Origin: Escherichia coli
Lineage (GTDB): Bacteria > Pseudomonadota > Gammaproteobacteria > Enterobacterales > Enterobacteriaceae
Length of the DNA: 64,000 bases
Strand: one strand, 5' to 3'
Assembly: GCF_044324785.1 (NCBI RefSeq)
Contig: NZ_CP172127.1
The notes under the pieces are model-generated. The model did no database searches. It was not told the origin of the DNA and was given only the letters and a program-made list of their open reading frames with translations. The translations under genes and the position numbers were made by a program. Below are positions 38,058-63,459 of the stretch, piece after piece (position 1 is the stretch's first letter; each line of letters opens with the position of its first letter).

Positions 38058-39059
38058 ATGAGTAAAGTTGGTATTAACGGTTTTGGTCGTATCGGTCGAC
38101 TGGTGTTGCGTCGATTACTTGAAGTCAAAAGCAACATAGACATTGTTGCTATTAATGATCTCACTTCCCCAAAAATTCTCGCCTACCTGTTGAAACATGA
38201 TTCAAACTACGGACCGTTCCCCTGGAGCGTTGATTTTACGGAAGATTCACTTATCGTTGATGGAAAAAGCATCGCGGTTTACGCCGAAAAAGAGGCTAAA
38301 AATATTCCATGGAAAGCGAAAGGCGCAGAAATCATTGTCGAATGTACTGGCTTTTATACCTCCGCCGAGAAATCGCAGGCGCACCTTGATGCTGGTGCGA
38401 AGAAGGTGTTGATTTCCGCCCCTGCCGGTGAAATGAAAACCATCGTTTATAACGTCAATGACGACACACTGGATGGCAACGACACCATTGTTTCCGTGGC
38501 GTCATGCACCACTAACTGCCTTGCGCCGATGGCCAAAGCCTTGCACGACAGTTTCGGAATAGAAGTCGGCACGATGACGACCATTCATGCCTATACCGGC
38601 ACTCAGTCACTGGTGGATGGTCCGCGAGGTAAAGATCTACGCGCTTCACGTGCAGCGGCAGAAAATATCATTCCCCACACTACAGGTGCGGCAAAAGCCA
38701 TTGGTCTGGTGATCCCGGAACTGAGCGGCAAACTGAAAGGTCATGCGCAACGCGTGCCGGTGAAAACAGGTTCGGTCACTGAGCTGGTATCGATTCTCGG
38801 AAAAAAAGTGACTGCCGAAGAGGTGAATAACGCACTTAAACAAGCAACCACCAATAACGAGTCATTTGGTTATACCGATGAAGAAATAGTCTCTTCCGAT
38901 ATCATTGGCAGCCATTTCGGTTCGGTGTTTGATGCCACGCAAACGGAAATTACCGCCGTGGGCGATTTACAACTGGTGAAAACGGTCGCCTGGTACGATA
39001 ACGAATATGGCTTCGTCACGCAGCTTATTCGCACCCTCGAAAAATTCGCTAAACTCTGA
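38058..39059 (+). CDS. gapC: Glyceraldehyde-3-phosphate dehydrogenase, full length
   Basis: 333-aa uninterrupted ORF with NAD-binding GFGRIGR and the active-site Cys motif [10 protein letters not shown]. Confidence 0.9.
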
Positions 39060-40736: not shown

Positions 40737-41537
40737 TTAACGTAACGAGCGACTTTCCATCGCCTCGATGAGCACCGCATCGTGTTTCAGCGTTTGCCAT
40801 GCCTGGATGACTTCTGCCGGAAAATCAACGTGAACGATAAAATCTCGCCCGCGTGGACCGTAGCCATCGCTATCATCGCGTAAACGTGGCAGCTCGCCAG
40901 TGAGTAGTGAGAGATAACGCTCAACCGGCCATAATCCTTGCAACGGATTAACAAAGATTACACTGTCTGCGTTGTTTCCTAGCTGAGGAACGAATCCGGG
41001 ATAACTTAACCAGCGAGGTGCATCGGGATTGTCCCCAGTCATACGGCGGAACGTCGCCATCGTGCGCCGCTGCATGGTGGGGTCCTGAACAACGATAGCC
41101 GTATGAACTCGTTCTACGGCCTGATTCAATAGCGCGATGCTAAAGCGTGCGTTTTCACCGCAGTTTGTTGACTGGTCTTCAATCCAGATTTTTTCATGCG
41201 GAATGTGCCAGAACTGATGAGCGATATCCGCCAGGATGGTCGCTTCTGCTCTGCCAGTGGTGCGAATAGTGTTGTAGTGCGGATGCTGTGCGATGGCACT
41301 ATACAAAAAAGTTGTCGAGTGACCGATACCACCACTAATCAGTAGAGGAATTTGCTGATCGCGGGCAATCTTGCATGCCGCATCGATAGTTGGCATAACC
41401 GCATTGCCTGCAAGGATCACGCAATCGGCCTGATACGGCATCTCACCGGAGAAATCATCCTGCGCCAGCCACTGACCGATAACATTTATGGCATCTATGG
41501 TTGCCGGCGAAAGCGTCGGAAACGGGGTAATGTTCAT
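40737..41537 (-). CDS. ydcF: DUF218-domain protein
   Basis: 266-aa ORF; synteny next to aldA. Confidence 0.85.
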
Positions 41538-41926
41538 GGTTCCTCCTTATCGTTTCCTTAAGAATACTGCGTGAGATAATAATGAGAAGCGGAGCACTCT
41601 GAAAGGAAGATGATGCTTTTTCTATCGCGCCATCGCGAACCAGACACTGGTTTTAGTCATACTGTATTTGCGGAGAAACTGTTGATAAAACATCTATAAC
41701 ATAATGTTCTATCATTTTTAAGTGACAGATAAGTTGGTGTGATATTTATGAAATATTCATTCTTATATTTCTCAATCAATGAGAACATTTGCAACACGCT
41801 CATTAATGGGAAATCCTTAAATTTAAATTGAATAATATCTGGCCTGAGCTATAAACTACTATCCGTCTAAGGAGACAAATTGTCCTTTTTATTCATCAAC
41901 ATAATACTATATGTCGAGAAACATAC

Positions 41927-42421
41927 ATGAAAAAAATGTTTCAACTTTTAGAAACCGCCTGGCCTGCCGTAAAAACAACAGGACTTACAGGTTGCGTAAC
42001 CGCTCCGGAAACTGAAGATAACCTTCTTTTATTAGAGGATAAATACGCAACACATATTCCAAAAGACTATCGGCAGTTATTGTCTCATTTTGGCGCATGT
42101 CATTTTGCCGATCCTCAAATTTATACTTTGAAGGATCTGGACAGATATTACCCTCTATTTTTGCAACAATGGGAAGATTATAAAAAAGAATATCCATTAT
42201 TGAACAACATTGATCCTTTTCCTGTTGGCAGTTTTGGCGATGGGAGTGTAGCTTTTCTTGACCGCAACAGCCTAAAAATTTATATTCTCATTCATGATTT
42301 TGGTATATTTTCCGATGATGTCGGTGATTTCCCTTGTGAGTTATGCTTTGAAAATTTTGGTGAGTTAGTGGAAATGCAAGTTGAAATGATTCTTTATTTA
42401 CAGCAATGTGGAGTCTCATGA
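41927..42421 (+). CDS. SUKH / SMI1-KNR4-family protein (immunity-protein-like), 164 aa
   Basis: AT-rich ORF; motif blocks LLLEDKYATHIPKDYRQLLSHFGA and PFPVGSFGDGSVAFLD fit the SMI1/KNR4 pattern as I remember it. Not a gene I place at this position in K-12. Confidence 0.55.
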   Translation: MKKMFQLLETAWPAVKTTGLTGCVTAPETEDNLLLLEDKYATHIPKDYRQLLSHFGACHFADPQIYTLKDLDRYYPLFLQQWEDYKKEYPLLNNIDPFPVGSFGDGSVAFLDRNSLKIYILIHDFGIFSDDVGDFPCELCFENFGELVEMQVEMILYLQQCGVS

Positions 42422-42717
42422 AAAATAAAATCATCACTCCTGTCCTTACTGAAAACAAAGTGAATTTGATAGCAGAAAAATATTGTAAAAAGTATAATCT
42501 TAATGGCTCGCTGGCATACAAAATCACTGCTATTAAATTTCTTCCTGATGGTATGAAATCATACGACCTTGATATTCCATTATGGATGGTAGTCAGAGAT
42601 GTTAAAGGTTGGGATGATATGGAAATTACGATTTTTATTTCTGACAAAAACAGTGAAGTTCTTTGTTGCAGTAATATTTGGTATCCAGTATATCGTCCTC
42701 ATCAAGCAGATTTGTAA
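42418..42717 (+). CDS. Hypothetical protein, 99 aa, translationally coupled to the upstream SUKH gene
   Basis: ATG at 42418 overlaps the upstream TGA (ATGA); GGAG lies 5 to 8 nt upstream. The ORF track lists the same frame starting at 42406. No recognisable domain. Confidence 0.5.
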   Translation: MKNKIITPVLTENKVNLIAEKYCKKYNLNGSLAYKITAIKFLPDGMKSYDLDIPLWMVVRDVKGWDDMEITIFISDKNSEVLCCSNIWYPVYRPHQADL

Positions 42718-42763
42718 TAAGCACGTAAGGAGTATCTCCCTTGCTATTTTTCAGAATTCATAA

Positions 42764-42800
42764 AGAAAAAACCCGGCGCTAAATGCTTACCGGGTTTTAG
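42764..42800. terminator. Bidirectional terminator shared by hrpA and the inserted two-gene cassette
   Basis: aaaaaa-ACCCGG…CCGGGT-tttt hairpin immediately downstream of both convergent units. Confidence 0.5.
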
Positions 42801-42822
42801 ATTTATCAGTCAAATAGCAGGG

Positions 42823-45800
42823 TTAACCGCTAATCTGCTCCATCGCCTGCAAAATACGCTTATCTGAAATCGGATAAGGCGTACCAAGTTGTTGAGCGAA
42901 GTAACTAACGCGCAACTCTTCTATCATCCAACGGATCTCTTTCACGTCTTCATCCTCACGACGTGCGGGCGGCAGTTTGTTGATCCATTGCTGCCACGCC
43001 TGCTGGACGTTTTCGACTTTCAGCATCTGAGCACGGTCGCGATGCGGATCAACCGCCAGTTTTTCCAGCCGTTTTTCAATCGCCTGCAAATATCGCAGCG
43101 TGTCGCCCAGCCGTTTAAAACCGTTGCCAGTGACAAAACCGCGATACACCAGCCCGCCCATCTGCGCTTTAATGTCAGAAAGCCCCAGCGCCATGGTCAT
43201 ATCCACCCGCCCTTTCAGGCGTTTGTTGATATTGAACACTGCCGTAAGGATTTGCTCGACCTGCTTTGCAATATCCACCACCGTGTCGTTCAGTTCAGCG
43301 CGAACTTTTTCATGCAGCGCAGCAAAGCCTTCTTCCGTCCAGACCGGGCCACCATTGGCGTCGATCAGTTGATCCACACCGCAGGAGATACAGTCGTCGA
43401 TCAGCTCCAGCACTTTGCCATACGGGTTAAAGTACAGCCCAAGTTTGGCTTTGTTTGGCAACTTCTCATGCAAGTATTTGATTGGTGAAGGAATATTCAG
43501 CAGCAGTAAACGACGAAGACCGTTCCACATCGCTTGCTTTTGTTCCAGCGGGTTATCAAACAGTTTGATCGCCACGCTGTCGCGCTCATCCACCAACGCT
43601 GGCCACGCCTTCACTTTGTAGTTGCCACGCTTCTGTTCGTAGCTTTCCGGCAGCTGACCAAAACTCCAGATATGTAAGCCGCTCTGCTCGATACCGTCAT
43701 CCGCCACCGCAGACAGCGTTTCCTGCACTTTGCCTTTCAGAGCATCTTTCAGATCCTGTAATGAGCGCCCTTCTTTTAACTTCTTGTTTTTGTCATCCAC
43801 CACACGGAAGGTGATTTTCAGGTGATCGGGCACCTGATCCCAGTGCCAGTCTTCGCGGTCAACGGTGACGCCAGTCATCCGCCGTAGCTCTCGTTCAAGA
43901 CTGTCGAGCAACGGCAATTCCAGCGGTGTGACGCGGCCTAGAAACGCTTCGGCGTAGTTTGGCGCGGGCACAAAATTACGGCGTACTGGTTTCGGCAACG
44001 ATTTAATCAGTGCGATGATCAGTTCACGACGCAGGCCGGGGATCTGCCACTCAAACCCGTTCTCCTCAACCTGATTAAGCAGCGGCAGCGGGATATGCAC
44101 AGTCACACCGTCAGCATCCGCGCCGGGCTCAAACTGATAACTCAAACGCAGCTTGAGATTGCCCTGATGCCAGAAGTTCGGGTAATCCAGCTTGCTGATC
44201 TTTTCCGCCCCTTCTTTGATCAACATGCTCTTTTCAAAGTTGAGCAAATCAGGCGTTTCGCGGCTGACTTTTTTCCACCAGCTGTCGAAGTGACGTGCGG
44301 AGATCACATCGTGGCTGATGCGCTGGTCGTAAAACTCAAACAGCGTTTCGTCATCCACCAGAATATCGCGGCGACGTGTTTTGTGTTCCAGTTCTTCCAC
44401 TTCGGCCCGTAGTTTCAGGTTTTCACGGAAGAATGCGTGACGCGTCTGCCAGTCACCTTCCACCAGCGCATGGCGAATAAAGAGTTCACGGCATAACGCC
44501 GGATCGATCTGGCTGTAGTTGACCTTACGCGCGGCAACAATCGGCAACCCGTAAACAGTGACTTTTTCCGTTGCCATCACCGCGCCCTGCGCCCGTTCCC
44601 AGTGTGGTTCGCTGTAGGTGCGTTTAATTAAATGCTGAGCAACTGGCTCCACCCATTCTGGATCGATGCGTGCCGCAATGCGCCCCCACAGGCGGCTGGT
44701 TTCTACCAGTTCCGCCACCATTACCCATTTCGGCGGTTTTTTAAATAAGCCGGAACCGGGGAAAATGGAGAAACGCGCGTTACGTGCGCCGGTATATTCT
44801 TGTTTATCGGCATCTTTCATGCCGATATGGGAAAGTAAACCCGTCAGCAACGCAATATGAATTTCACGATACTCCGCCGGTTCGCTGTTAACCGGAATGC
44901 CAAGTTCTTTCACCACCTGGCGCAACTGGGTGTAGATATCCTGCCATTCGCGCACGCGCAGATAGTTGAGATAATCGGTACGACACAGGCGACGGAAGGC
45001 GTTTGAAGAAAGCGCCTTTTGCTGCTCGCCAAGATAATTCCACAGATTTACAAACGCGAGGAAGTCGGATTCTTTGTCGTGGAAGCGACGATGTTTTTCG
45101 TCCGATGCCTGCTGTTTGTCCATCGGTCGTTCGCGCGGATCCTGGATGGAGAGCGCGGACGTGATAATCATCGCCTCACGCACGCAGCCATGTTTTTGCG
45201 CTTCCAGCACCATACGCGCCAGACGAGGATCGACAGGCAACTGCGAGAGCTGGCGACCGAGCGGCGTCAGTTTATAGGCGCTGGCCTGTTCATCCGTGGT
45301 GATCGCGCCCAGCTCTTCGAGCAGACGCACGCCATCCTGGATATTACGTTTATCCGGTGCTTCGACAAATGGGAACGCGGCGATATCGCCCAACCCCAGC
45401 GCGGTCATCTGTAAAATAACCGAGGCCAGGTTGGTACGCAGAATCTCCGGATCGGTAAACTCCGGGCGCGAGAGGAAATCGTCTTCGGAATAGAGACGAA
45501 TACAGATCCCTTCGGACACACGACCACAGCGGCCTTTACGCTGGTTGGCAGACGCCTGCGAAATGGGCTCAATCGGCAAACGCTGCACTTTGGTGCGATA
45601 GCTGTAGCGGCTGATACGCGCCGTACCTGGGTCGATAACGTATTTAATCCCCGGTACGGTCAGCGACGTTTCCGCGACGTTGGTCGCCAGCACAATGCGC
45701 CGTCCACTGTGCGACTGGAACACGCGGTTCTGTTCGCTGTTCGAAAGCCGCGCATAAAGCGGCAAGATTTCGGTATGGCGTAAGTTCAGCTTGTTCAGCG

Positions 45801-46725
45801 CATCGGCGGTATCGCGAATTTCCCGCTCACCGCTCATAAAGATCAGAATGTCGCCGGGACTTTCCTGGCTCAGTTCGTCTACGGCGTCAAAAATCGCCTG
45901 CAACTGATCGCGCTCGGTGTCATCGGCTTCTTCAACAATCGGGCGATAGCGCACTTCCACCGGATAGGTCCGACCGGAGACTTCGATAATCGGCGCATTA
46001 TTAAAGTGGCGCGAAAAGCGTTCCGGGTCGATAGTCGCGGAAGTGATAATGATTTTTAGGTCAGGACGCCGCGGCAGCAACTCTTTCAAATAGCCGAGCA
46101 GAAAATCGATATTCAGGCTGCGTTCGTGCGCTTCGTCAATAATGATAGTGTCGTACTGCATCAGCAGGCGGTCTTGCTGGATCTCCGCCAGCAGGATACC
46201 GTCGGTCATCAGCTTGACCATCGTGTTATCACTTACGTGATCGCTGAAACGCACTTTGTAACCGATGCAACCGCCCGGCTCAGTTTTCAGCTCTTCCGCA
46301 ATACGGTTGGCCACCGTTCGTGCCGCCAGACGACGCGGCTGGGTATGGCCGATCAGCCCTTTAATCCCGCGGCCCAACTCCATACAGATTTTCGGTAGCT
46401 GAGTCGTTTTACCGGAACCCGTTTCCCCGGCGACGATCACTACCTGGTGATCACGAATTGCTTCGAGAATGTCCTGCTTTTTCTGACTAACCGGCAAATT
46501 GTCAGGATAAGTGATTTCCGGTCGTGCCGCTTCACGCAGCAGGACTTTCCCTGCCGCATGGTCAATCTCTTTCGCCATCTCCTGGAAAATGGCCTGTTGT
46601 GCATCAGGATTTTTAACCTTCTTCACGCCGTGCAGACGGCGAGAAAAACGCAGTCTGTCGCGCAGCATCAGCGAATCCAGCCGCTGCTGCAAGGCCGTAA
46701 AGGTCAATTTTTGTTGTTCTGTCAT
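42823..46725 (-). CDS. hrpA: ATP-dependent RNA helicase HrpA (DEAH-box)
   Basis: 1300-aa ORF with Walker A GETGSGKTT, DEAH box (IIIDEAHERSL) and helicase C-terminal domains. Confidence 0.95.
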   Translation of the reverse strand: MTEQQKLTFTALQQRLDSLMLRDRLRFSRRLHGVKKVKNPDAQQAIFQEMAKEIDHAAGKVLLREAARPEITYPDNLPVSQKKQDILEAIRDHQVVIVAGETGSGKTTQLPKICMELGRGIKGLIGHTQPRRLAARTVANRIAEELKTEPGGCIGYKVRFSDHVSDNTMVKLMTDGILLAEIQQDRLLMQYDTIIIDEAHERSLNIDFLLGYLKELLPRRPDLKIIITSATIDPERFSRHFNNAPIIEVSGRTYPVEVRYRPIVEEADDTERDQLQAIFDAVDELSQESPGDILIFMSGEREIRDTADALNKLNLRHTEILPLYARLSNSEQNRVFQSHSGRRIVLATNVAETSLTVPGIKYVIDPGTARISRYSYRTKVQRLPIEPISQASANQRKGRCGRVSEGICIRLYSEDDFLSRPEFTDPEILRTNLASVILQMTALGLGDIAAFPFVEAPDKRNIQDGVRLLEELGAITTDEQASAYKLTPLGRQLSQLPVDPRLARMVLEAQKHGCVREAMIITSALSIQDPRERPMDKQQASDEKHRRFHDKESDFLAFVNLWNYLGEQQKALSSNAFRRLCRTDYLNYLRVREWQDIYTQLRQVVKELGIPVNSEPAEYREIHIALLTGLLSHIGMKDADKQEYTGARNARFSIFPGSGLFKKPPKWVMVAELVETSRLWGRIAARIDPEWVEPVAQHLIKRTYSEPHWERAQGAVMATEKVTVYGLPIVAARKVNYSQIDPALCRELFIRHALVEGDWQTRHAFFRENLKLRAEVEELEHKTRRRDILVDDETLFEFYDQRISHDVISARHFDSWWKKVSRETPDLLNFEKSMLIKEGAEKISKLDYPNFWHQGNLKLRLSYQFEPGADADGVTVHIPLPLLNQVEENGFEWQIPGLRRELIIALIKSLPKPVRRNFVPAPNYAEAFLGRVTPLELPLLDSLERELRRMTGVTVDREDWHWDQVPDHLKITFRVVDDKNKKLKEGRSLQDLKDALKGKVQETLSAVADDGIEQSGLHIWSFGQLPESYEQKRGNYKVKAWPALVDERDSVAIKLFDNPLEQKQAMWNGLRRLLLLNIPSPIKYLHEKLPNKAKLGLYFNPYGKVLELIDDCISCGVDQLIDANGGPVWTEEGFAALHEKVRAELNDTVVDIAKQVEQILTAVFNINKRLKGRVDMTMALGLSDIKAQMGGLVYRGFVTGNGFKRLGDTLRYLQAIEKRLEKLAVDPHRDRAQMLKVENVQQAWQQWINKLPPARREDEDVKEIRWMIEELRVSYFAQQLGTPYPISDKRILQAMEQISG

Positions 46726-55773: not shown

Positions 55774-58700
55774 TTAGAACGTTTTCTTGAAGTTCAGCAT
55801 CACGCCTTTATCGCTGATGCCGTCCTCTTTCCAGTGGTAAGCATCCAGATTCAGCGAACTTTCTTTGCTGCTGTACTTCACGCCGACACTTGCCAGGCTG
55901 TTGATGCCGCCGCCCTTCTGTCCGTCATCGACGTTAAAGTGCTGACTGCCTGCGCCTGCCAGGCTTGCCGTACGCTGGCTCTTCGCGTAGCTCAGGTTCG
56001 GCCCGCCTTCCAGCGTAGCGCTAGCGCTCCAGCCGTCTTTACCTGCATAGTCCAGTTTCAGCCCGACGATGCTGTCCACCGCCGTTTCGCTGCCACTGTT
56101 CATATTCAGGTTAAAGTCTCCGGCATTGCGCTCCTGATAGCCACCTTCCAGTGTGTGACGCAGTTTAACACCCGCATATGGCGTAACCTTCAGTCCTTCG
56201 CTCGGTTCGAAAGTCTTCGCCCCTTCGCTGCGGAACTCCAGGTACTGCTGCTTCACGTCGGTATCAGCCGTTTTGTTTGTGTTGCTAAATGCAATCGAAC
56301 GGCTGCTGTCAAGGTTGTGAACGTCATAACGCAATGCGTTATTCCAGTTCATGCCGTTGTCGAAGGACATCTGATGTTTCAGGCCAAAGAACTGGCTATA
56401 ACCGCCTGTAACGCCATTATCACCCGCTTTCTGCGCACCGTCGCCATCGAGGCGCGCGATACCGTACTCCAGACTCATCGTCTGGCTTTCGCTCAGGTCG
56501 ATGGTTTTACGCAGTGCCAGCATGTCGTACTCGGTATTGTTCCCCAGCTCCGCGCGCGGATCGCCTTTCGCCACCACGTTGAACGCCAGACCGTTACCCA
56601 CTTTCGGTGCGGCATCCGCCAGCATGCTAAAGCGGTTGCTGAGCACACGCGCTTCGCGGAATACCGTGGTCGCCTGGCTACCGCTGACCTGTTTCAGGGC
56701 ACTGTTCAGTTCGGCAGTCGTGCCGACGTTCAGGCTGGTATACAGCTCGTTGTTGGTGTAACCCGCATCCAGTGCTTTCGCGACGTCATTAACCGAAGCA
56801 TCGGTCGCCACATCGGTATAAGCGTTTTTGCTCATAGTGACGTCAACGTTGCCGCTGGCATCGGTACTGCCTTTAGCGTTCCAGACAACTGAAGAGGAAG
56901 TGATATTCTCCGCGCCGCTGATATTTTCACCTTTGAAAACATCATCAATCACCACGGTAGTATCAGCAGTTCCTGCACTAAAGCCAGTATTTACCTTGAC
57001 GTTGTCACTGATAACAAGGTTATTGGCTTTCAAGGTGCCGGAACTTCCGTCGCTATTAGTACCAATAGTGTAATTGGTAAGTTTTTGCTGACTTACAGCA
57101 TTGACTGGTGCCGCAGGAACATTACCTTGCCCAGGCGTCGCAGAAGCGACCGGTACGATTATATCCGCAGTTCCATCCTGACTGTTTCTCGTCCCTGTGG
57201 TATTTGGCGCATAAATCTCGCAACCAATATTACACAACAGGTTGATTATCCCATTATTCACAATCGCTTTAGTGGAACCACCAAACGCCCATGAATTATC
57301 TGCATAAACGTTAATGACACCGTCTTTAGTATTATTAATCGTTGTTGCAGAACCATTTCCTTTGATGCCAATCAGACCTTCACCGTTGCTTCCATCTGCT
57401 TTGCCCTGTTCAGTACCCACGTTAATTGTGCCGCTGTTCACTAACTGAACAGTATAGCTGGTGGTGCCTCCGCTAATAGCAACTGAACCATCACCCTGAA
57501 CATTAATTGTTCCGGCGTTAGCAAAATTATACCCGCGACCTAAATCAATCAGTGGAGCATCTGGATTGATACCATTAATTACACCGTTTTCTGTATTCCA
57601 AATCCATTTGCCGTTGCTGTTAGAGCCTGTGCTGGCAGTTTTAATCGCACTGTAACCGTTTGTAGCGATAATTTTGCCGCGGTTAACCTGTGAAAGAGAA
57701 TCACTGGTGCGTGTGATATTAACGATGGCATTTTCCCCTCCCGCAATAGCATTGCCGCTATTTGTAAGCGTTGAGCCGGCTTCATTATAAAGTACGAAAC
57801 TGCCGTTAATTAAGGCACTACCATCTGTGGCAGTTGTCATCTCCCCCGTATTTACAACGTTTTGTTTATAACTATCACCGCTAATTACACCGCTAAAGCT
57901 TCCCTCATTGAAGAAGGCAGACCCGCCTTTTAACATTAACAGTTCGGTTGTCATACTGCCCGAGGCGCGATTGTAAACACTGGCATTGGCAGTAAGCTTG
58001 TCGACATCCATGCTCCCGCTGTTTTCCAGCCCCTGGACAATATTCAAATCACCATTAACTGTCAGGCTGGCCTTATCCTCGTTATATAACCATAGATTGG
58101 CATCGACATCGCCGTTCAGTATTTCTGTACCATAATTAGCCAGCGGTTTAATGGTAACAAAGCCATCTCGGGTAACTGTTTTGGTAATGTTCTCTCCACT
58201 GGCACTCAATTCAGATAACAGTTCCAGATTCTCTGCAGGAGCACCATAATGAGAGTCGGCGCTATCAATTTCCGCTCCGTTGAGATTAATCTCACCATAG
58301 TTGAGGATAATGCCTGTACCATCATTATAAAACGCCTGGCCCGTATCAACATTAATATTGATTACACCAGTTTGGTCGTTTATTGCCGTAGCACCTTTAT
58401 ACACTGCCATCCCTACCAGCGTATTACTACCCAGGTTTGCATCGTAATCTGCATTTTTCTCGAGGTTAATGATTCCCTGGTTAATAACCATATTACTGTT
58501 ACCGTAGGCGGCCATACCGGCACCTGCGTTATATACAGTAATTACACCACCTTCCAGGTTGGTCGCAATAGCGTTGTTACGAGCGCCACCCCCGGTGTCT
58601 GTCCCGGTTGCCATACCAACGCCATAATCTTTTGCCGTTGCCCCCGGAAGATCGGTACGCAAACTGGTGGTGTCATTGTCATCAATCCATAACGTATCCA

Positions 58701-61700
58701 CCGTAATATTGCCTGCATTATCCGCCGTTGAGTTATCGATGGCTAACATGCCAATGCTACCGCGTCCATACATATCAATGACAGCACCTTCGGCATTGAG
58801 AACAGAGCCTTTATTATACGCCTCCATCCCCATCATGCTTGCTACGCTGTTATTAAACACGCGCTGATCCGTTGACCCCGTGAGTGCAGCCATATTAACA
58901 ACGCTATGTTGCTCCATTACTTTTGAGGTAATTACCCCTTTGTTTACTGCTCTGCCGCCGTTAGAGGTCAAGAAGGCCGTGTTATCTGGTTCCGGTGCTG
59001 GCGTATTAGTTGAGGCATAATCATACAGAGAAAGTGTGATATTCCCGTTATTGATACCTGTGGTATTTTCGCCAAAGATACCAGCAAAGCTGATATTCCA
59101 GATATCAACATTACCGTTATTTATAACCTCAGAGCTACTTTCTGCCTTTATAATCTGTGGTGTTTGTGCATAGTAATGATCATAATTTTCAATATCCCGC
59201 ATATTGAAAGTAGCTTCACTGCCAATCTCAATAGCTGCTTTATTTTTTAACTGGATAAGGCTTGCATATCCTAGTTGCAGATCACCACTGATCGTTGAGT
59301 CACCATTCAGATATATCTTCGATTCACCATCAATACCAATAAGTGGCGTATTACCGAAGAAAGTCCGTTTGTTAGCAATGGCTGAACCATCGGTCAGCGC
59401 ATTTATTTCACCAACAAATGCAATCCCGCCATTCAGATTGATGTTGTTACCATCACCGGAAACAATAAGACCAGAAATATTTTCCTGGCTACCGTCAAAA
59501 TTCGAGACATCACGTGTGGTAGTTTCACCATCCGCAACAAGCGTTAATTTACCATCCAGTGTCACATTGTTATTATGACCACTGACATTTACGCCCACGG
59601 AAGCGTCATAAAAATACTCTGCTGCATTGTCTGCGCTCTGATCTTTATCAACCAGAATATTACCAGTTATATCAATTGTATTGGCATCACCGGAGACGTT
59701 AATACCTGTAGCTTTCTGACCAACGACATTAAGATCCTGCATTGCCATTGTCAGGCTATTATTATCGCCAGTTAATGTCAGCCCTGTTGAAAAATCACCG
59801 ACCTGCATACTTCCCGCGAGGGAGATTTTCCCCTCGTCGCTGGTAATAGCAAATCCCGTCGCTGAATTGCTGACATCCACATCACCGGTATTGGCAAGTG
59901 TCGCGTTGTCGCCATTGATCAGTACACCGATCGAGTCTGCGTCCGTGACGGTCATATTGCCTTTGTTATCGACGGCGGCATTATCGCCAGAAATATCAAT
60001 GCCGTGACCGCCGCCGCTGACATCCAGATCGCCATCCTGGATAACTTTTCCGTTATTGCCGTTGATTTCCGTGCCGGTGGAGTCTTTACCGTCAACGGTG
60101 GTTTTGCCGCTGTTGTTCGCCGTGGCGTCGTCACCGTTAATCTGTGTACCGGTGCCGCCGTTGGTGATGGTGCTCTCGCCTTCGTTGTTAACAACCGCCT
60201 TGTCGCCGTCGATCTGAATACCGATGGACTCCGGATCGGTGACAGTCATGGTACCCTTGTTGTCCACCGTTGCGCTGTCACCGGTAATATCAATCCCGTG
60301 ACCGCCGCCGCTGACGTCCAGATCGCCGTCCTGGATAACTTTTCCGTTATTGCCGTTGATTTCCGTGCCGGTGGAATCTTTACCGTCAACGGTGGTTTTG
60401 CCGCTGTTGTTCGCCGTGGCGTCATCACCGTTAATCTGCGTACCGGTGCCGCCGTTGCTGATGGTGCTGTCGCCTTCGTTGTTAACAACCGCCTTGTCGC
60501 CGTCGATCTGAATACCGATGGACTCCGGATCGGTGACAGTCATGGTACCCTTGTTGTCCACCGTTGCGCTGTCACCGGTAATATCAATCCCGTGACCGCC
60601 GCCGCTGACGTCCAGATCGCCGTCCTGGATAACTTTTCCGTTATTGCCGTTGATTTCCGTGCCGGTGGAATCTTTACCGTCAACGGTGGTTTTGCCGCTG
60701 TTGTTCGCCGTGGCGTCATCACCGTTAATCTGCGTACCGGTGCCGCCGTTGCTGATGGTGCTGTCGCCTTCGTTGTTAACAACCGCCTTGTCGCCGTCGA
60801 TCTGAATACCGATGGACTCCGGATCGGTGACGGTCATGGAGCCCTTGTTATCCACCGTTGAACTGTCACCGGTGATATCAATGCCGTGACCGCCGCCGCT
60901 GACATCCAGATCACCGTCCTGGATAACTTTTCCGTTATTGCCGTTGATTTCCGTGCCGGTGGAATCCTTGCCGTCAACGGTGGTTTTGCCGCTGTTGTTC
61001 GCCGTGGCGTCATCACCGTTAATCTGCGTACCGGTGCCGCCATTGCTGATGGTGCTGTCGCCTTCGTTGTTAACAACAGCCTTGTCGCCGTCGATCTGAA
61101 TACCGATGGACTCCGGATCGGTGACGGTCATGGTGCCCTTGTTATCCACCGTTGAACTGTCACCGGTGATATCAATGCCGTGACCGCCGCCGCTGACATC
61201 CAGATCACCGTCCTGGATAACTTTTCCGTTATTGCCGTTGATTTCCGTGCCGGTGGAATCCTTGCCGTCAACGGTGGTTTTGCCGCTGTTGTTCGCCGTG
61301 GCGTCATCACCGTTAATCTGCGTACCGGTGCCGCCGTTGCTGATGGTGCTGTCGCCTTCGTTGTTAACAACCGCCTTGTCGCCGTCGATCTGAATACCGA
61401 TGGACTCCGGATCGGTGACAGTCATGGTACCCTTGTTGTCCACCGTTGCGCTGTCACCGGTAATATCAATCCCGTGACCGCCGCCGCTGACGTCCAGATC
61501 GCCGTCCTGGATAACTTTTCCGTTATTGCCGTTGATTTCCGTGCCGGTGGAATCTTTACCGTCAACGGTGGTTTTGCCGCTGTTGTTCGCCGTGGCGTCA
61601 TCACCGTTAATCTGCGTACCGGTGCCGCCGTTGCTGATGGTGCTGTCGCCTTCGTTGTTAACAACCGCCTTGTCGCCGTCGATCTGAATACCGATGGACT

Positions 61701-63459
61701 CCGGATCGGTGACGGTCATGGAGCCCTTGTTATCCACCGTTGAACTGTCACCGGTGATATCAATGCCGTGACCGCCGCCGCTGACATCCAGATCACCGTC
61801 CTGGATAACTTTTCCGTTATTGCCGTTGATTTCCGTGCCGGTGGAATCCTTGCCGTCAACGGTGGTTTTGCCGCTGTTGTTCGCCGTGGCGTCATCACCG
61901 TTAATCTGCGTACCGGTGCCGCCATTGCTGATGGTGCTGTCGCCTTCGTTGTTAACAACAGCCTTGTCGCCGTCGATCTGAATACCGATGGACTCCGGAT
62001 CGGTGACGGTCATGGTGCCCTTGTTATCCACCGTTGAACTGTCACCGGTGATATCAATGCCGTGACCGCCGCCGCTGACATCCAGATCACCGTCCTGGAT
62101 AACTTTTCCGTTATTGCCGTTGATTTCCGTGCCGGTGGAATCCTTGCCGTCAACGGTGGTTTTGCCGCTGTTGTTCGCCGTGGCGTCATCACCGTTAATC
62201 TGCGTACCGGTGCCGCCATTGCTGATGGTGCTGTCGCCTTCGTTATTGACAACCGCCTTGTCACCGTCAATCCGGATACCCATGGACTCCGGATCGGTGA
62301 CAGTCATCGTGCCCTTGTTATCCACCGTCGCACTGTCACCGGTGATATCAATCCCGTGACCGCCGCCGCTGACGTCCAGATCGCCGTCCTGGATAACTTT
62401 CCCGTTATTACCGTTGATTTCCGTGCCGGTGGAGTCTTTACCGTCAACGGTGGTTTTGCCGCTGTTGTTCGCCGTGGCGTCGTCACCGTTAATCTGCGTG
62501 CCGGTGCCGCCGTTGCTGATGGTGCTCTCGCCTTCGTTATTGACGATGGCCTTGTCACCGTCAATCCGGATACCCATGGACTCCGGATCGGTGACAGTCA
62601 TGGTGCCCTTGTTATCCACCGTCGCGCTGTCGCCGGTGATATCAATGCCGTGACCGCCGCCGCTGACGTCCAGATCGCCGTCCTGGATAACTTTCCCGTT
62701 ATTACCGTTGATTTCCGTGCCGGTGGAGTCTTTACCGTCAACGGTGGTTTTGCCATTGTTGTTTACTGTGGCATTATCACCCGTAATAACAAGCTCACCG
62801 TTGTGATTGTATTGCCACTTCGTTGCGCCATCTGCGCTCACCCCTTCAAGGGCAACAGTGTTATTTGCTTCATCAATCTGCCAAAGATTAATTGTTGCCT
62901 TACGACCACTGTTATCTTGCAGAGAAATAGTCCCGTCAGCATTCTCGGTATAAGTAAAAACTGAATCGCGAATAGTTAACGTTTTTTCTGTTTTATCGAG
63001 AATAACGTCATTATTAAACGAAATCGGTTTGGAAGGTGTAGGGGTATCATCCGGATCGTCCGGTATTATCTCATCTCCGCCTGGAGTTGGAGGCACTGGA
63101 GTATCGTCTGAATCATCATCGGGTGGTGTCGGCGGTACAGGGGCATTGTTGCGATGATGATGATTACCATCGTCGTTTAGTTCGACGACCGCCAGCGCGG
63201 TGATTAATGCAAAGGCACCAGAGGCAACCCACGGCATAAGGTTTTGCTGTACTTGTGGAGAACATTCGGGAGGTATTTGCTTTAACGCTTCCGGAGTCAG
63301 CATGTCAGGGTCTGCCGGACAAGTCACATTGGTATTTTTCTTTTCGCCTGTGGCCGTTTCTGTCTCTGTAATATCAGCCGCCCACCCCTGACCACTCAGA
63401 GCTAATGCAATACAGGCTGATAATAGGGTTTTCCTTTGCATAATAAATCCTTCTGACAA
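55774..63459 (-). CDS. ydbA: Giant autotransporter adhesin-like protein YdbA, uninterrupted
   Basis: 2561-codon ORF. Signal peptide (MQRKTLLSACIALALSGQGWA; the start may be the internal ATG at 63441), Pro/Asp-rich linker, repetitive passenger domain, and a C-terminal beta-barrel region ending in F. Confidence 0.9.
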   Translation of the reverse strand: MSEGFIMQRKTLLSACIALALSGQGWAADITETETATGEKKNTNVTCPADPDMLTPEALKQIPPECSPQVQQNLMPWVASGAFALITALAVVELNDDGNHHHRNNAPVPPTPPDDDSDDTPVPPTPGGDEIIPDDPDDTPTPSKPISFNNDVILDKTEKTLTIRDSVFTYTENADGTISLQDNSGRKATINLWQIDEANNTVALEGVSADGATKWQYNHNGELVITGDNATVNNNGKTTVDGKDSTGTEINGNNGKVIQDGDLDVSGGGHGIDITGDSATVDNKGTMTVTDPESMGIRIDGDKAIVNNEGESTISNGGTGTQINGDDATANNSGKTTVDGKDSTGTEINGNNGKVIQDGDLDVSGGGHGIDITGDSATVDNKGTMTVTDPESMGIRIDGDKAVVNNEGDSTISNGGTGTQINGDDATANNSGKTTVDGKDSTGTEINGNNGKVIQDGDLDVSGGGHGIDITGDSSTVDNKGTMTVTDPESIGIQIDGDKAVVNNEGDSTISNGGTGTQINGDDATANNSGKTTVDGKDSTGTEINGNNGKVIQDGDLDVSGGGHGIDITGDSSTVDNKGSMTVTDPESIGIQIDGDKAVVNNEGDSTISNGGTGTQINGDDATANNSGKTTVDGKDSTGTEINGNNGKVIQDGDLDVSGGGHGIDITGDSATVDNKGTMTVTDPESIGIQIDGDKAVVNNEGDSTISNGGTGTQINGDDATANNSGKTTVDGKDSTGTEINGNNGKVIQDGDLDVSGGGHGIDITGDSSTVDNKGTMTVTDPESIGIQIDGDKAVVNNEGDSTISNGGTGTQINGDDATANNSGKTTVDGKDSTGTEINGNNGKVIQDGDLDVSGGGHGIDITGDSSTVDNKGSMTVTDPESIGIQIDGDKAVVNNEGDSTISNGGTGTQINGDDATANNSGKTTVDGKDSTGTEINGNNGKVIQDGDLDVSGGGHGIDITGDSATVDNKGTMTVTDPESIGIQIDGDKAVVNNEGDSTISNGGTGTQINGDDATANNSGKTTVDGKDSTGTEINGNNGKVIQDGDLDVSGGGHGIDITGDSATVDNKGTMTVTDPESIGIQIDGDKAVVNNEGESTITNGGTGTQINGDDATANNSGKTTVDGKDSTGTEINGNNGKVIQDGDLDVSGGGHGIDISGDNAAVDNKGNMTVTDADSIGVLINGDNATLANTGDVDVSNSATGFAITSDEGKISLAGSMQVGDFSTGLTLTGDNNSLTMAMQDLNVVGQKATGINVSGDANTIDITGNILVDKDQSADNAAEYFYDASVGVNVSGHNNNVTLDGKLTLVADGETTTRDVSNFDGSQENISGLIVSGDGNNINLNGGIAFVGEINALTDGSAIANKRTFFGNTPLIGIDGESKIYLNGDSTISGDLQLGYASLIQLKNKAAIEIGSEATFNMRDIENYDHYYAQTPQIIKAESSSEVINNGNVDIWNISFAGIFGENTTGINNGNITLSLYDYASTNTPAPEPDNTAFLTSNGGRAVNKGVITSKVMEQHSVVNMAALTGSTDQRVFNNSVASMMGMEAYNKGSVLNAEGAVIDMYGRGSIGMLAIDNSTADNAGNITVDTLWIDDNDTTSLRTDLPGATAKDYGVGMATGTDTGGGARNNAIATNLEGGVITVYNAGAGMAAYGNSNMVINQGIINLEKNADYDANLGSNTLVGMAVYKGATAINDQTGVININVDTGQAFYNDGTGIILNYGEINLNGAEIDSADSHYGAPAENLELLSELSASGENITKTVTRDGFVTIKPLANYGTEILNGDVDANLWLYNEDKASLTVNGDLNIVQGLENSGSMDVDKLTANASVYNRASGSMTTELLMLKGGSAFFNEGSFSGVISGDSYKQNVVNTGEMTTATDGSALINGSFVLYNEAGSTLTNSGNAIAGGENAIVNITRTSDSLSQVNRGKIIATNGYSAIKTASTGSNSNGKWIWNTENGVINGINPDAPLIDLGRGYNFANAGTINVQGDGSVAISGGTTSYTVQLVNSGTINVGTEQGKADGSNGEGLIGIKGNGSATTINNTKDGVINVYADNSWAFGGSTKAIVNNGIINLLCNIGCEIYAPNTTGTRNSQDGTADIIVPVASATPGQGNVPAAPVNAVSQQKLTNYTIGTNSDGSSGTLKANNLVISDNVKVNTGFSAGTADTTVVIDDVFKGENISGAENITSSSVVWNAKGSTDASGNVDVTMSKNAYTDVATDASVNDVAKALDAGYTNNELYTSLNVGTTAELNSALKQVSGSQATTVFREARVLSNRFSMLADAAPKVGNGLAFNVVAKGDPRAELGNNTEYDMLALRKTIDLSESQTMSLEYGIARLDGDGAQKAGDNGVTGGYSQFFGLKHQMSFDNGMNWNNALRYDVHNLDSSRSIAFSNTNKTADTDVKQQYLEFRSEGAKTFEPSEGLKVTPYAGVKLRHTLEGGYQERNAGDFNLNMNSGSETAVDSIVGLKLDYAGKDGWSASATLEGGPNLSYAKSQRTASLAGAGSQHFNVDDGQKGGGINSLASVGVKYSSKESSLNLDAYHWKEDGISDKGVMLNFKKTF
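59900..62760. repeat. Tandem in-frame repeats inside ydbA: about 10 copies of a 294-bp (98-codon) unit
   Basis: Protein unit GKTTVDGKDSTGTEINGNNGKVIQDGDLDVSGGGHGIDITGD…NGGTGTQINGDDATANNS recurs about ten times. Alternate-frame shadow ORFs recur at exactly 294-bp spacing (60246, 60540, 60834, 61128, 61422, 61716, 62010, 62304), several with identical translations. Confidence 0.9.

Follow-up and report, generated by a model that had tools for sequence, protein, structure and literature searches.

We analyzed a 64,000-nucleotide stretch of Escherichia coli DNA (contig NZ_CP172127.1; hereafter the window), in which the core genes ydcF and hrpA are separated by a gap of 1,285 bp that carries a cassette of two plus-strand open reading frames (ORFs), designated gene 1 and gene 2 (Table 1). 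These are the only ORFs within the variable segment of the gap. The stop codon of gene 1 and the start codon of gene 2 overlap as ATGA (42418-42421), and a GGAG Shine-Dalgarno sequence lies 6-9 nt 5' of the gene 2 ATG; gene 2 is translationally coupled to gene 1. The GC content of the variable segment is 34.2% (36.6% for gene 1 and 32.0% for gene 2), compared with 51.8% for ydcF, 53.6% for hrpA and 48.8% for the window as a whole. Gene 1 is preceded by no more than 319 bp of AT-rich non-coding DNA and the 21-codon remnant of an unrelated gene. The length of the two ORFs (164 and 99 codons in DNA of 34% GC), their profile matches and their homologues establish them as real genes.

The distance between ydcF and hrpA in K-12-type genomes is 271 bp (locus L005). 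In pairwise blastn comparison, the homology of the window to this spacer extends to 41607 and begins again at 42760, and 1,152 bp in the window stand where the K-12-type spacer has 138 bp. A prior sequence-only reading of this DNA had described an AT-rich, foreign pair of coupled genes that is not part of the K-12 gene order, and all of this is borne out by the comparison. It had also set the limits of the inserted DNA at 41538-42822; the foreign segment is genuine, while its true boundaries are the narrower ones of Table 1. The same reading took a bounding bidirectional terminator as a sign of acquisition. The hairpin (AAAAAACCCGG...CCGGGTTTT), flanked by A- and T-runs on both sides, does exist, but it is the resident terminator of hrpA, common to K-12-type genomes. 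The terminator-like stretch directly 3' of gene 2 is found as well in a different allele of the locus, the DUF2262 allele described below. The flanking direct repeats that the reading had proposed to look for did not emerge, as the segment edges have just short direct and inverted repeats at chance level. There is no tRNA gene and no Rfam family match at the segment, and no insertion sequence (IS) element, transposase or integrase at the cassette in the window. A transposon, an integron and an integrative island were therefore ruled out.

Table 1 Features of the ydcF-hrpA interval, in window positions
Feature	Coordinates	Strand	Basis
ydcF (DUF218), conserved left flank	40737..41537	-	ORF call; RefSeq annotation of homologous loci
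Variable AT-rich segment	41608..42759	.	blastn homology break-points against K-12-type locus L005; GC values
Stump, 3' 21 codons of the 125-aa gene of the O157-type allele	41653..41718	-	Alignment and PGAP
Gene 1, 164-aa SUKH / SMI1-KNR4 family protein	41927..42421	+	Pfam, RefSeq product name, distant homologue
Gene 2, 99-aa protein of a very rare family	42418..42717	+	ORF call; PepSY/cystatin-like predicted fold
Terminator-like hairpin and T-run, directly 3' of gene 2	42725..42754 (hairpin 42725-42744)	+	Consensus scan
hrpA bidirectional hairpin terminator, right edge of the variable segment	42760..42806	.	Inverted-repeat search; alignment to L005
hrpA, conserved right flank	42823..46725	-	ORF call; RefSeq annotation of homologous loci

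The cassette is AT-rich, foreign, accessory DNA. Of the 5,426 complete E. coli genomes searched, 185 (approximately 3%) carry it with a coverage of at least 80%, and it is missing from approximately 96%. In the carriers it is a single chromosomal copy, always at the ydcF-hrpA locus and never beside a toxin gene, and no paralogue was found elsewhere in these genomes, even at the "distant" sensitivity of blastn. Many human isolates and a strain labelled ST69 are among the carriers, and the cassette also occurs in E. fergusonii. Two sequence types can be distinguished: about 175 genomes have a cassette that is approximately 98.5% identical to that of the window, and in about 10 genomes the identity is 94.6%. 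RefSeq names the pair "SMI1/KNR4 family protein" and "hypothetical protein", and both genes are annotated at full cassette coverage in the genomes of the 98.5% type that were listed; the protein alleles of the window itself are identical to no sequence retrieved. Since neither gene is present in viral contigs or phage records, an origin from a prophage or as a phage moron was rejected.

Comparison of the homologous loci identifies the ydcF-hrpA gap as a multi-allelic replacement hotspot that is free of repeats. In at least 335 of the 5,426 genomes, the gap is filled by an O157:H7-type allele, which consists of three or four small genes on the minus strand. The genes of this allele encode proteins of 125, 143/149, 112 and 141 aa (L003 1154-2564, L004 1154-2842), none with a Pfam, NCBIfam or PADLOC match; the allele is commoner than the two-gene cassette and just as uncharacterised. 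Five further genomes have a single gene for a 285-aa DUF7021+DUF2262 protein, which has no PADLOC or NCBIfam match. The alleles keep pieces of one another. The translation of the stump in the window (KMIEHYVIDVLSTVSPQIQYD, ending at a stop codon) aligns, with an internal deletion, to the C-terminus of the 125-aa protein of the O157-type allele (L004), and the Prokaryotic Genome Annotation Pipeline (PGAP) annotates it as an incomplete coding sequence in carrier genomes. Because this stump of an O157-type gene was kept, the cassette must have replaced an earlier cassette and not filled an empty site. The word "inserted" in the sequence-only reading holds insofar as the gap differs from that of K-12, but what lies there is one allele of a replacement hotspot with an earlier stump, and not a simple insertion.

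A composite allele in E. fergusonii CP056936 (L101 3001-4771) combines the gene 1 homologue, a frameshifted gene 2 and the 285-aa DUF7021+DUF2262 gene in one gap. The DUF2262 allele of E. coli equals this composite minus approximately 889 bp, a deletion that is bounded by ATTTG microhomologies (window 41787-41791 and 42676-42680) and that took gene 1 together with all of gene 2 except its last dozen codons. The E. coli cassette of the 94.6% type is 97.9% identical to that of E. fergusonii. The 138-bp stretch of the K-12-type spacer (L005 1209-1346) that is missing from the window has no counterpart in the O157-type allele either, and it may be the remnant of another lost cassette. Because mobility genes and repeats are absent, homologous recombination in the flanking core genes would be the simplest mechanism of cassette exchange. 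A literature search returned nothing on the ydcF-hrpA hotspot or on DUF2262.

The product of gene 1 is, by profile comparison, a protein of the SUKH superfamily. It matches the Pfam models SUKH_6 (3.4e-6), SUKH_5 (2e-5) and SMI1_KNR4 (2.7e-5) over residues 27-129. The scores are modest (25-28 bits), and the RefSeq name and the precomputed Pfam assignment concur. No PADLOC or NCBIfam match was obtained, and a sequence search of PDB chains with the protein or its alignment returned nothing significant. The SUKH family supplies immunity proteins of polymorphic-toxin systems, among them contact-dependent inhibition (CDI), Rhs and type VI secretion (T6SS), LXG and others. The protein is acidic (isoelectric point of 4.5, net charge of -13), and property calculation and reading of the sequence point to a cytoplasmic product without a convincing signal peptide. 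A lipobox-like L-T-G-C at residues 20-23 was considered as a lipoprotein signal. The preceding segment is not hydrophobic, includes E9 and K16, and is not conserved in a relative from Subdoligranulum, so the idea was dropped.

Close relatives of gene 1 are confined to Escherichia, and those found outside the genus are only 33-47% identical. The first of these was found on a replicon of Subdoligranulum variabile, where a 251-aa ORF carries a C-terminal SMI1_KNR4 domain with 39% identity to gene 1. This ORF sits in a same-strand array with Imm51, SUKH-3, DUF1963, DUF4241, DUF5713, DUF6881, DUF4259 and ankyrin-repeat domains, which is a classic poly-immunity locus. Neighbouring immunity genes of this array have four-base overlaps (3172-3498/3495-4451 and 4479-5213/5210-5620), and the ATGA overlap of the cassette is therefore not diagnostic of a toxin-antidote pair. 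A metagenome scan added 75 further loci in the same range of identity, mostly of 31-40% GC; the distant relatives come from gut Firmicutes, several of them from samples labelled human gut. Some of the 75 adjoin the immunity families Imm68, Imm33, DUF6881 and DUF4259, and others have neighbours resembling defence or mobile-element genes (Fic/Doc, McrB-like AAA_5, helicases). The Pfam families AAA_5, AAA_30 and UvrD_C_2 occur among the neighbours, and those large proteins encoded upstream of SUKH relatives whose sequences were inspected look McrB-type AAA and helicase-like. No toxin was seen directly upstream in any distant SUKH locus, where only the 20 commonest Pfam families were listed and rare toxin domains could escape.

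The commonest arrangement among these loci is a solitary SUKH gene of 147-168 aa amid genes for NhaC, a zinc-ribbon protein, exodeoxyribonuclease III and an EamA transporter, with Tag also seen. The SUKH relative is directly upstream of the exodeoxyribonuclease III gene in 19 of the 70 loci that have a callable SUKH ORF (75 in total), and the gene for DNA-3-methyladenine glycosylase I is located 2-4 same-strand ORFs upstream in six loci. This context need not mean a functional link, as the species concerned may all belong to one related group.

Gene 2 belongs to a very rare, previously undescribed family. Profile searches gave no match in Pfam (even at E<=10), NCBIfam, PADLOC or PHROG, and nothing significant was found among PDB chains with the sequence or its alignment. 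An exhaustive phmmer search of 1.84 billion cluster representatives retrieved 12 proteins, nine of them from outside Escherichia at 38-46% identity; a profile search of 5.8 billion clusters brought 14 family members, and two scans of 100,044 species-representative genomes brought no relatives. The conserved residues of the family are W56, D61, G64-W-D-D67, I72, I74, D76 and C83, and gene 2 of the window keeps every one of them. A single-sequence AlphaFold2 (AF2) model was poor (predicted local distance difference test, pLDDT, of 51), and the model built from the 12-sequence alignment was used instead (pLDDT of 90.5, predicted template-modelling score, pTM, of 0.83). In this model a single helix packs onto an antiparallel sheet of four strands, and the top structural neighbours belong to the PepSY/cystatin-like class. 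The best fold matches are the PepSY domains of FoxB, YpeB and YpmB, a designed cystatin fold, M4 protease propeptides and Ugi. Foldseek returned the E. coli protein itself, a 219-aa protein of Sebaldella termitidis and then PepSY proteins. Inhibitory propeptides and protease inhibitors are the best-known proteins with this fold, and the model suggests that gene 2 encodes a free-standing PepSY/cystatin-like domain that is inhibitor-like and not enzyme-like. The protein is presumably cytoplasmic, because its sequence has no N-terminal hydrophobic segment. The GWDD motif is located within the hairpin that joins strands 2 and 3 in the model, and by analogy with the loops of cystatins one may speculate that this hairpin could be a contact loop.

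The relatives of gene 2 outside Escherichia lie on contigs of 28-34% GC, with the exception of one 526-bp contig at 41%. The named hosts are a Coprobacillaceae metagenome-assembled genome (MAG) and Sebaldella sp. S0638. The neighbouring genes encode AraC/GyrI-like regulators, a MazE/AbrB-like protein, an enzyme resembling coenzyme A (CoA)-disulfide reductase and ribosome-associated proteins. One family member is fused to DUF3781. In bacteria resembling Sebaldella, the gene 2 domain is fused to a domain of approximately 113 aa of no known function (L010 106-769; S0638, L100 10001-10669), which in a related contig is a separate, overlapping downstream gene coupled to the gene 2 domain; the arrangement reflects either gene fusion/fission or a frameshift in one assembly. 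No pair of a SUKH gene with gene 2 was found outside Escherichia, either at the 75 SUKH loci or at the approximately 10 loci of gene 2 relatives, and among the loci found the pairing appears to be specific to Escherichia.

The function of the cassette can now be considered. The best explanation, which we put at about an even call, is a horizontally acquired, strain-variable two-gene cassette that provides orphan protection of the immunity type against the toxins of competitors. Gene 1 is most likely an orphan immunity protein, because the SUKH family supplies such proteins and no toxin is nearby; it would bind a matching injected toxin domain one-to-one and block the toxin. Gene 2 would be a second binding or inhibitor protein of the same cassette, as are neighbours in poly-immunity arrays, and neither a toxin nor an enzyme. 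The cassette would have arrived in the place of the earlier one, probably by recombination in the flanking core genes, and would since have been partly eroded in several lineages. Both the immunity function of gene 1 and any role of gene 2 are what we infer. In the literature, it was the linkage of bacterial SUKH genes to nuclease toxins that defined them as immunity genes, and orphan modules occur commonly (PMC4436062). In agreement with the sequence-only reading, three Pfam models place gene 1 in SUKH/SMI1-KNR4, there is no adjacent toxin gene, and an orphan immunity role stays the best reading on family membership and the context of distant relatives. That reading had named two outcomes that would refute it, the presence of the pair in K-12 and most E. 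coli genomes and the lack of a SUKH profile match for gene 1; the distribution and the profiles both came out in its favour.

Several observations weigh against an immunity role. Because no cognate toxin was found, the assignment derives from family membership and from the surroundings of distant relatives, and most of the 75 relatives of gene 1 are solitary among housekeeping genes and not beside toxins. No relative of gene 2, whether in Sebaldella, in the Coprobacillaceae MAG or on the other low-GC contigs, adjoins SUKH, toxin or recognised immunity genes, and immunity as a role for gene 2 is therefore without contextual support. The gene 2 family keeps D61, GWDD, D76 and C83 over 35-45% identity, a conservation of polar residues that exceeds what is usual for fast-evolving immunity proteins. 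A consensus scan found no clear sigma-70 promoter upstream of gene 1. Finally, with damaged copies in several lineages, the cassette may be largely functionless.

Some of these same observations would be explained if the SUKH protein and its partner served a host process as protein-binding regulators or chaperones, outside any conflict between bacteria. SUKH members with other roles than immunity exist, such as Syd and yeast Smi1/Knr4. The solitary setting of most gene 1 relatives, repeatedly beside the DNA-repair genes xth and tag, is what such a role would predict, as are the housekeeping and regulator genes (GyrI-like/Cass2 AraC, MazE/AbrB-like) around the relatives of gene 2 and the invariant polar residues of that family. 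We nevertheless consider a host function unlikely. The cassette is dispensable, being absent from most E. coli and disrupted in several lineages, its base composition is foreign, and its genes differ in background and occur together nowhere but in Escherichia. The repeated xth context, moreover, probably stems from one group of related gut species and not from independent associations.

The mutational record of the cassette bears on a further alternative, which is that it is decaying passenger DNA, acquired once, probably silenced as AT-rich, and hitch-hiking between core genes. Gene 2 is frameshifted by a 1-bp deletion, with gene 1 intact, in the two genomes of the 94.6% type that were examined (a type seen in about 10 genomes) and in E. 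fergusonii. Strain N3 has a G64D substitution in the otherwise conserved GWDD motif, and in strain 2017C-4173W12 an IS1 element splits gene 1 and leaves gene 2 intact. These lesions, the deletion of approximately 889 bp in the DUF2262 allele, the many singleton amino-acid variants in public data and the lack of a consensus promoter upstream of gene 1 all fit decay. So do the closely related alleles of gene 1, which differ by 2-5 nonsynonymous and 0 synonymous changes. On the other side, both genes are called in the listed genomes of the 98.5% type (about 175 genomes), both ORFs are intact in the window, gene 2 of the window has lost none of the conserved family residues, and the cassette persists across E. 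coli and E. fergusonii. Relative to the divergent allele, the ratio of nonsynonymous to synonymous polymorphism (pN/pS) is below 1 for both genes (0.3-0.6). For gene 1 it is 0.31-0.40 (8.5 synonymous and 10.5-13.5 nonsynonymous differences), and for gene 2 it is 0.33-0.61 among intact alleles. Because the counts of differences are small, these values point to purifying selection that is only weak, which fits a gene that is useful only occasionally. We give pure passenger status a low chance.

The natural lesions also amount to single knock-outs, since for either gene there are genomes in which it is broken while its neighbour is intact. Unless the operon is silent, neither gene thus acts like a toxin dependent on its partner. 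Another alternative is a toxin-antidote or abortive-infection module that is complete in itself, with one toxic protein (the 99-aa product being the candidate) that the SUKH protein would neutralise in the same cell. This alternative could draw on the tight ATGA coupling seen in many toxin-antitoxin and toxin-immunity pairs, on the lack of a known function for gene 2 and on the resemblance of the hotspot to those that hold defence systems, but it is very improbable given these knock-outs (with the caveat on expression), the lack of a PADLOC or NCBIfam match for either protein, the small PepSY/cystatin-like predicted fold of gene 2 without catalytic or membrane features, the position of the SUKH gene in front, which reverses the order of toxin and then immunity gene, and the separation of the two genes everywhere outside Escherichia. 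The sequence-only reading had entertained a cryptic toxin-immunity module of this kind with a 99-aa toxin, and the non-enzymatic predicted fold and the single knock-outs speak against it.

Should gene 1 prove to be an orphan immunity gene, its carriers would be resistant to a toxin not of their own making, and this would form one small part of competitive ecology in gut E. coli. Gene 2, for which the model is confident, represents an extremely rare family of small proteins. The ydcF-hrpA gap is a clean case of its kind of hotspot, with a history that is legible from gene stumps. Part of this was already known: the RefSeq name of gene 1 is correct, and neither orphan SUKH genes nor variable intergenic hotspots are new in kind. 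The description of the gene 2 family at the level of its fold, the Escherichia-specific pairing and the reconstructed history of the locus are new, and none of the findings overturns current understanding.

Two other intact genes were noticed around the cassette in the window. At the gapC position, the window encodes an intact 333-aa type I glyceraldehyde-3-phosphate dehydrogenase (38058-39059, plus strand; NCBIfam TIGR01534, E 5e-134); in K-12, gapC is a pseudogene. In E. fergusonii CP056936, ydcF adjoins gapC, and no aldA gene was called between them. Farther away, at 55774-63459 on the minus strand, the window encodes an intact 2,561-aa autotransporter adhesin that matches the BigA model over nine stretches; K-12 has the disrupted ydbA pseudogene at this position.

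Comparison with known systems places the cassette among several of them. PepSY domains (PF03413) resemble gene 2 at the level of the fold alone, as there is no profile match at E<=10. They are typically extracytoplasmic, whereas gene 2 is without an N-terminal hydrophobic segment and has a W...D..GWDD...D...C motif of its own. The other alleles of the gap differ from the cassette in that their protein families are unrelated and their genes are on the opposite strand; they share with it the hotspot itself, small genes of no known function, the lack of mobility genes and the shared stumps that indicate serial replacement. Gene 1 resembles the SUKH immunity proteins in its family profile, in being small, acidic and cytoplasmic, and in having relatives in poly-immunity arrays. 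It differs in its identity of 33-47% to relatives outside Escherichia and in the absence of a toxin gene from the locus, where the usual arrangement of a polymorphic toxin-immunity locus, with a gene for a toxin that has a C-terminal toxin domain immediately upstream of the immunity gene, was not found.

A further parallel is with poly-immunity loci and with the acquired interbacterial defence (AID) clusters, which are arrays of orphan immunity genes in gut bacteria (Bacteroidales). The cassette has just two genes and no recombinase or mobile-element backbone, and its second gene is in no recognised immunity family. Like these loci, it is horizontally acquired and strain-variable, and it consists of tandem, same-strand, small genes (often overlapping in such loci) for unrelated, presumed binding proteins, with no toxin. 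A bolder reading of this likeness, which we regard as distinctly unlikely, is that the 99-aa protein founds an undescribed GWDD-motif family of small cytoplasmic PepSY-like inhibitors, and that Escherichia has recruited it alongside a SUKH protein, the two making up a two-component immunity or anti-effector unit. On this view, Escherichia species would exchange orphan protection cassettes at the ydcF-hrpA gap as a dedicated site, and the gap would correspond, in enterobacteria, to the AID clusters of gut Bacteroidales.

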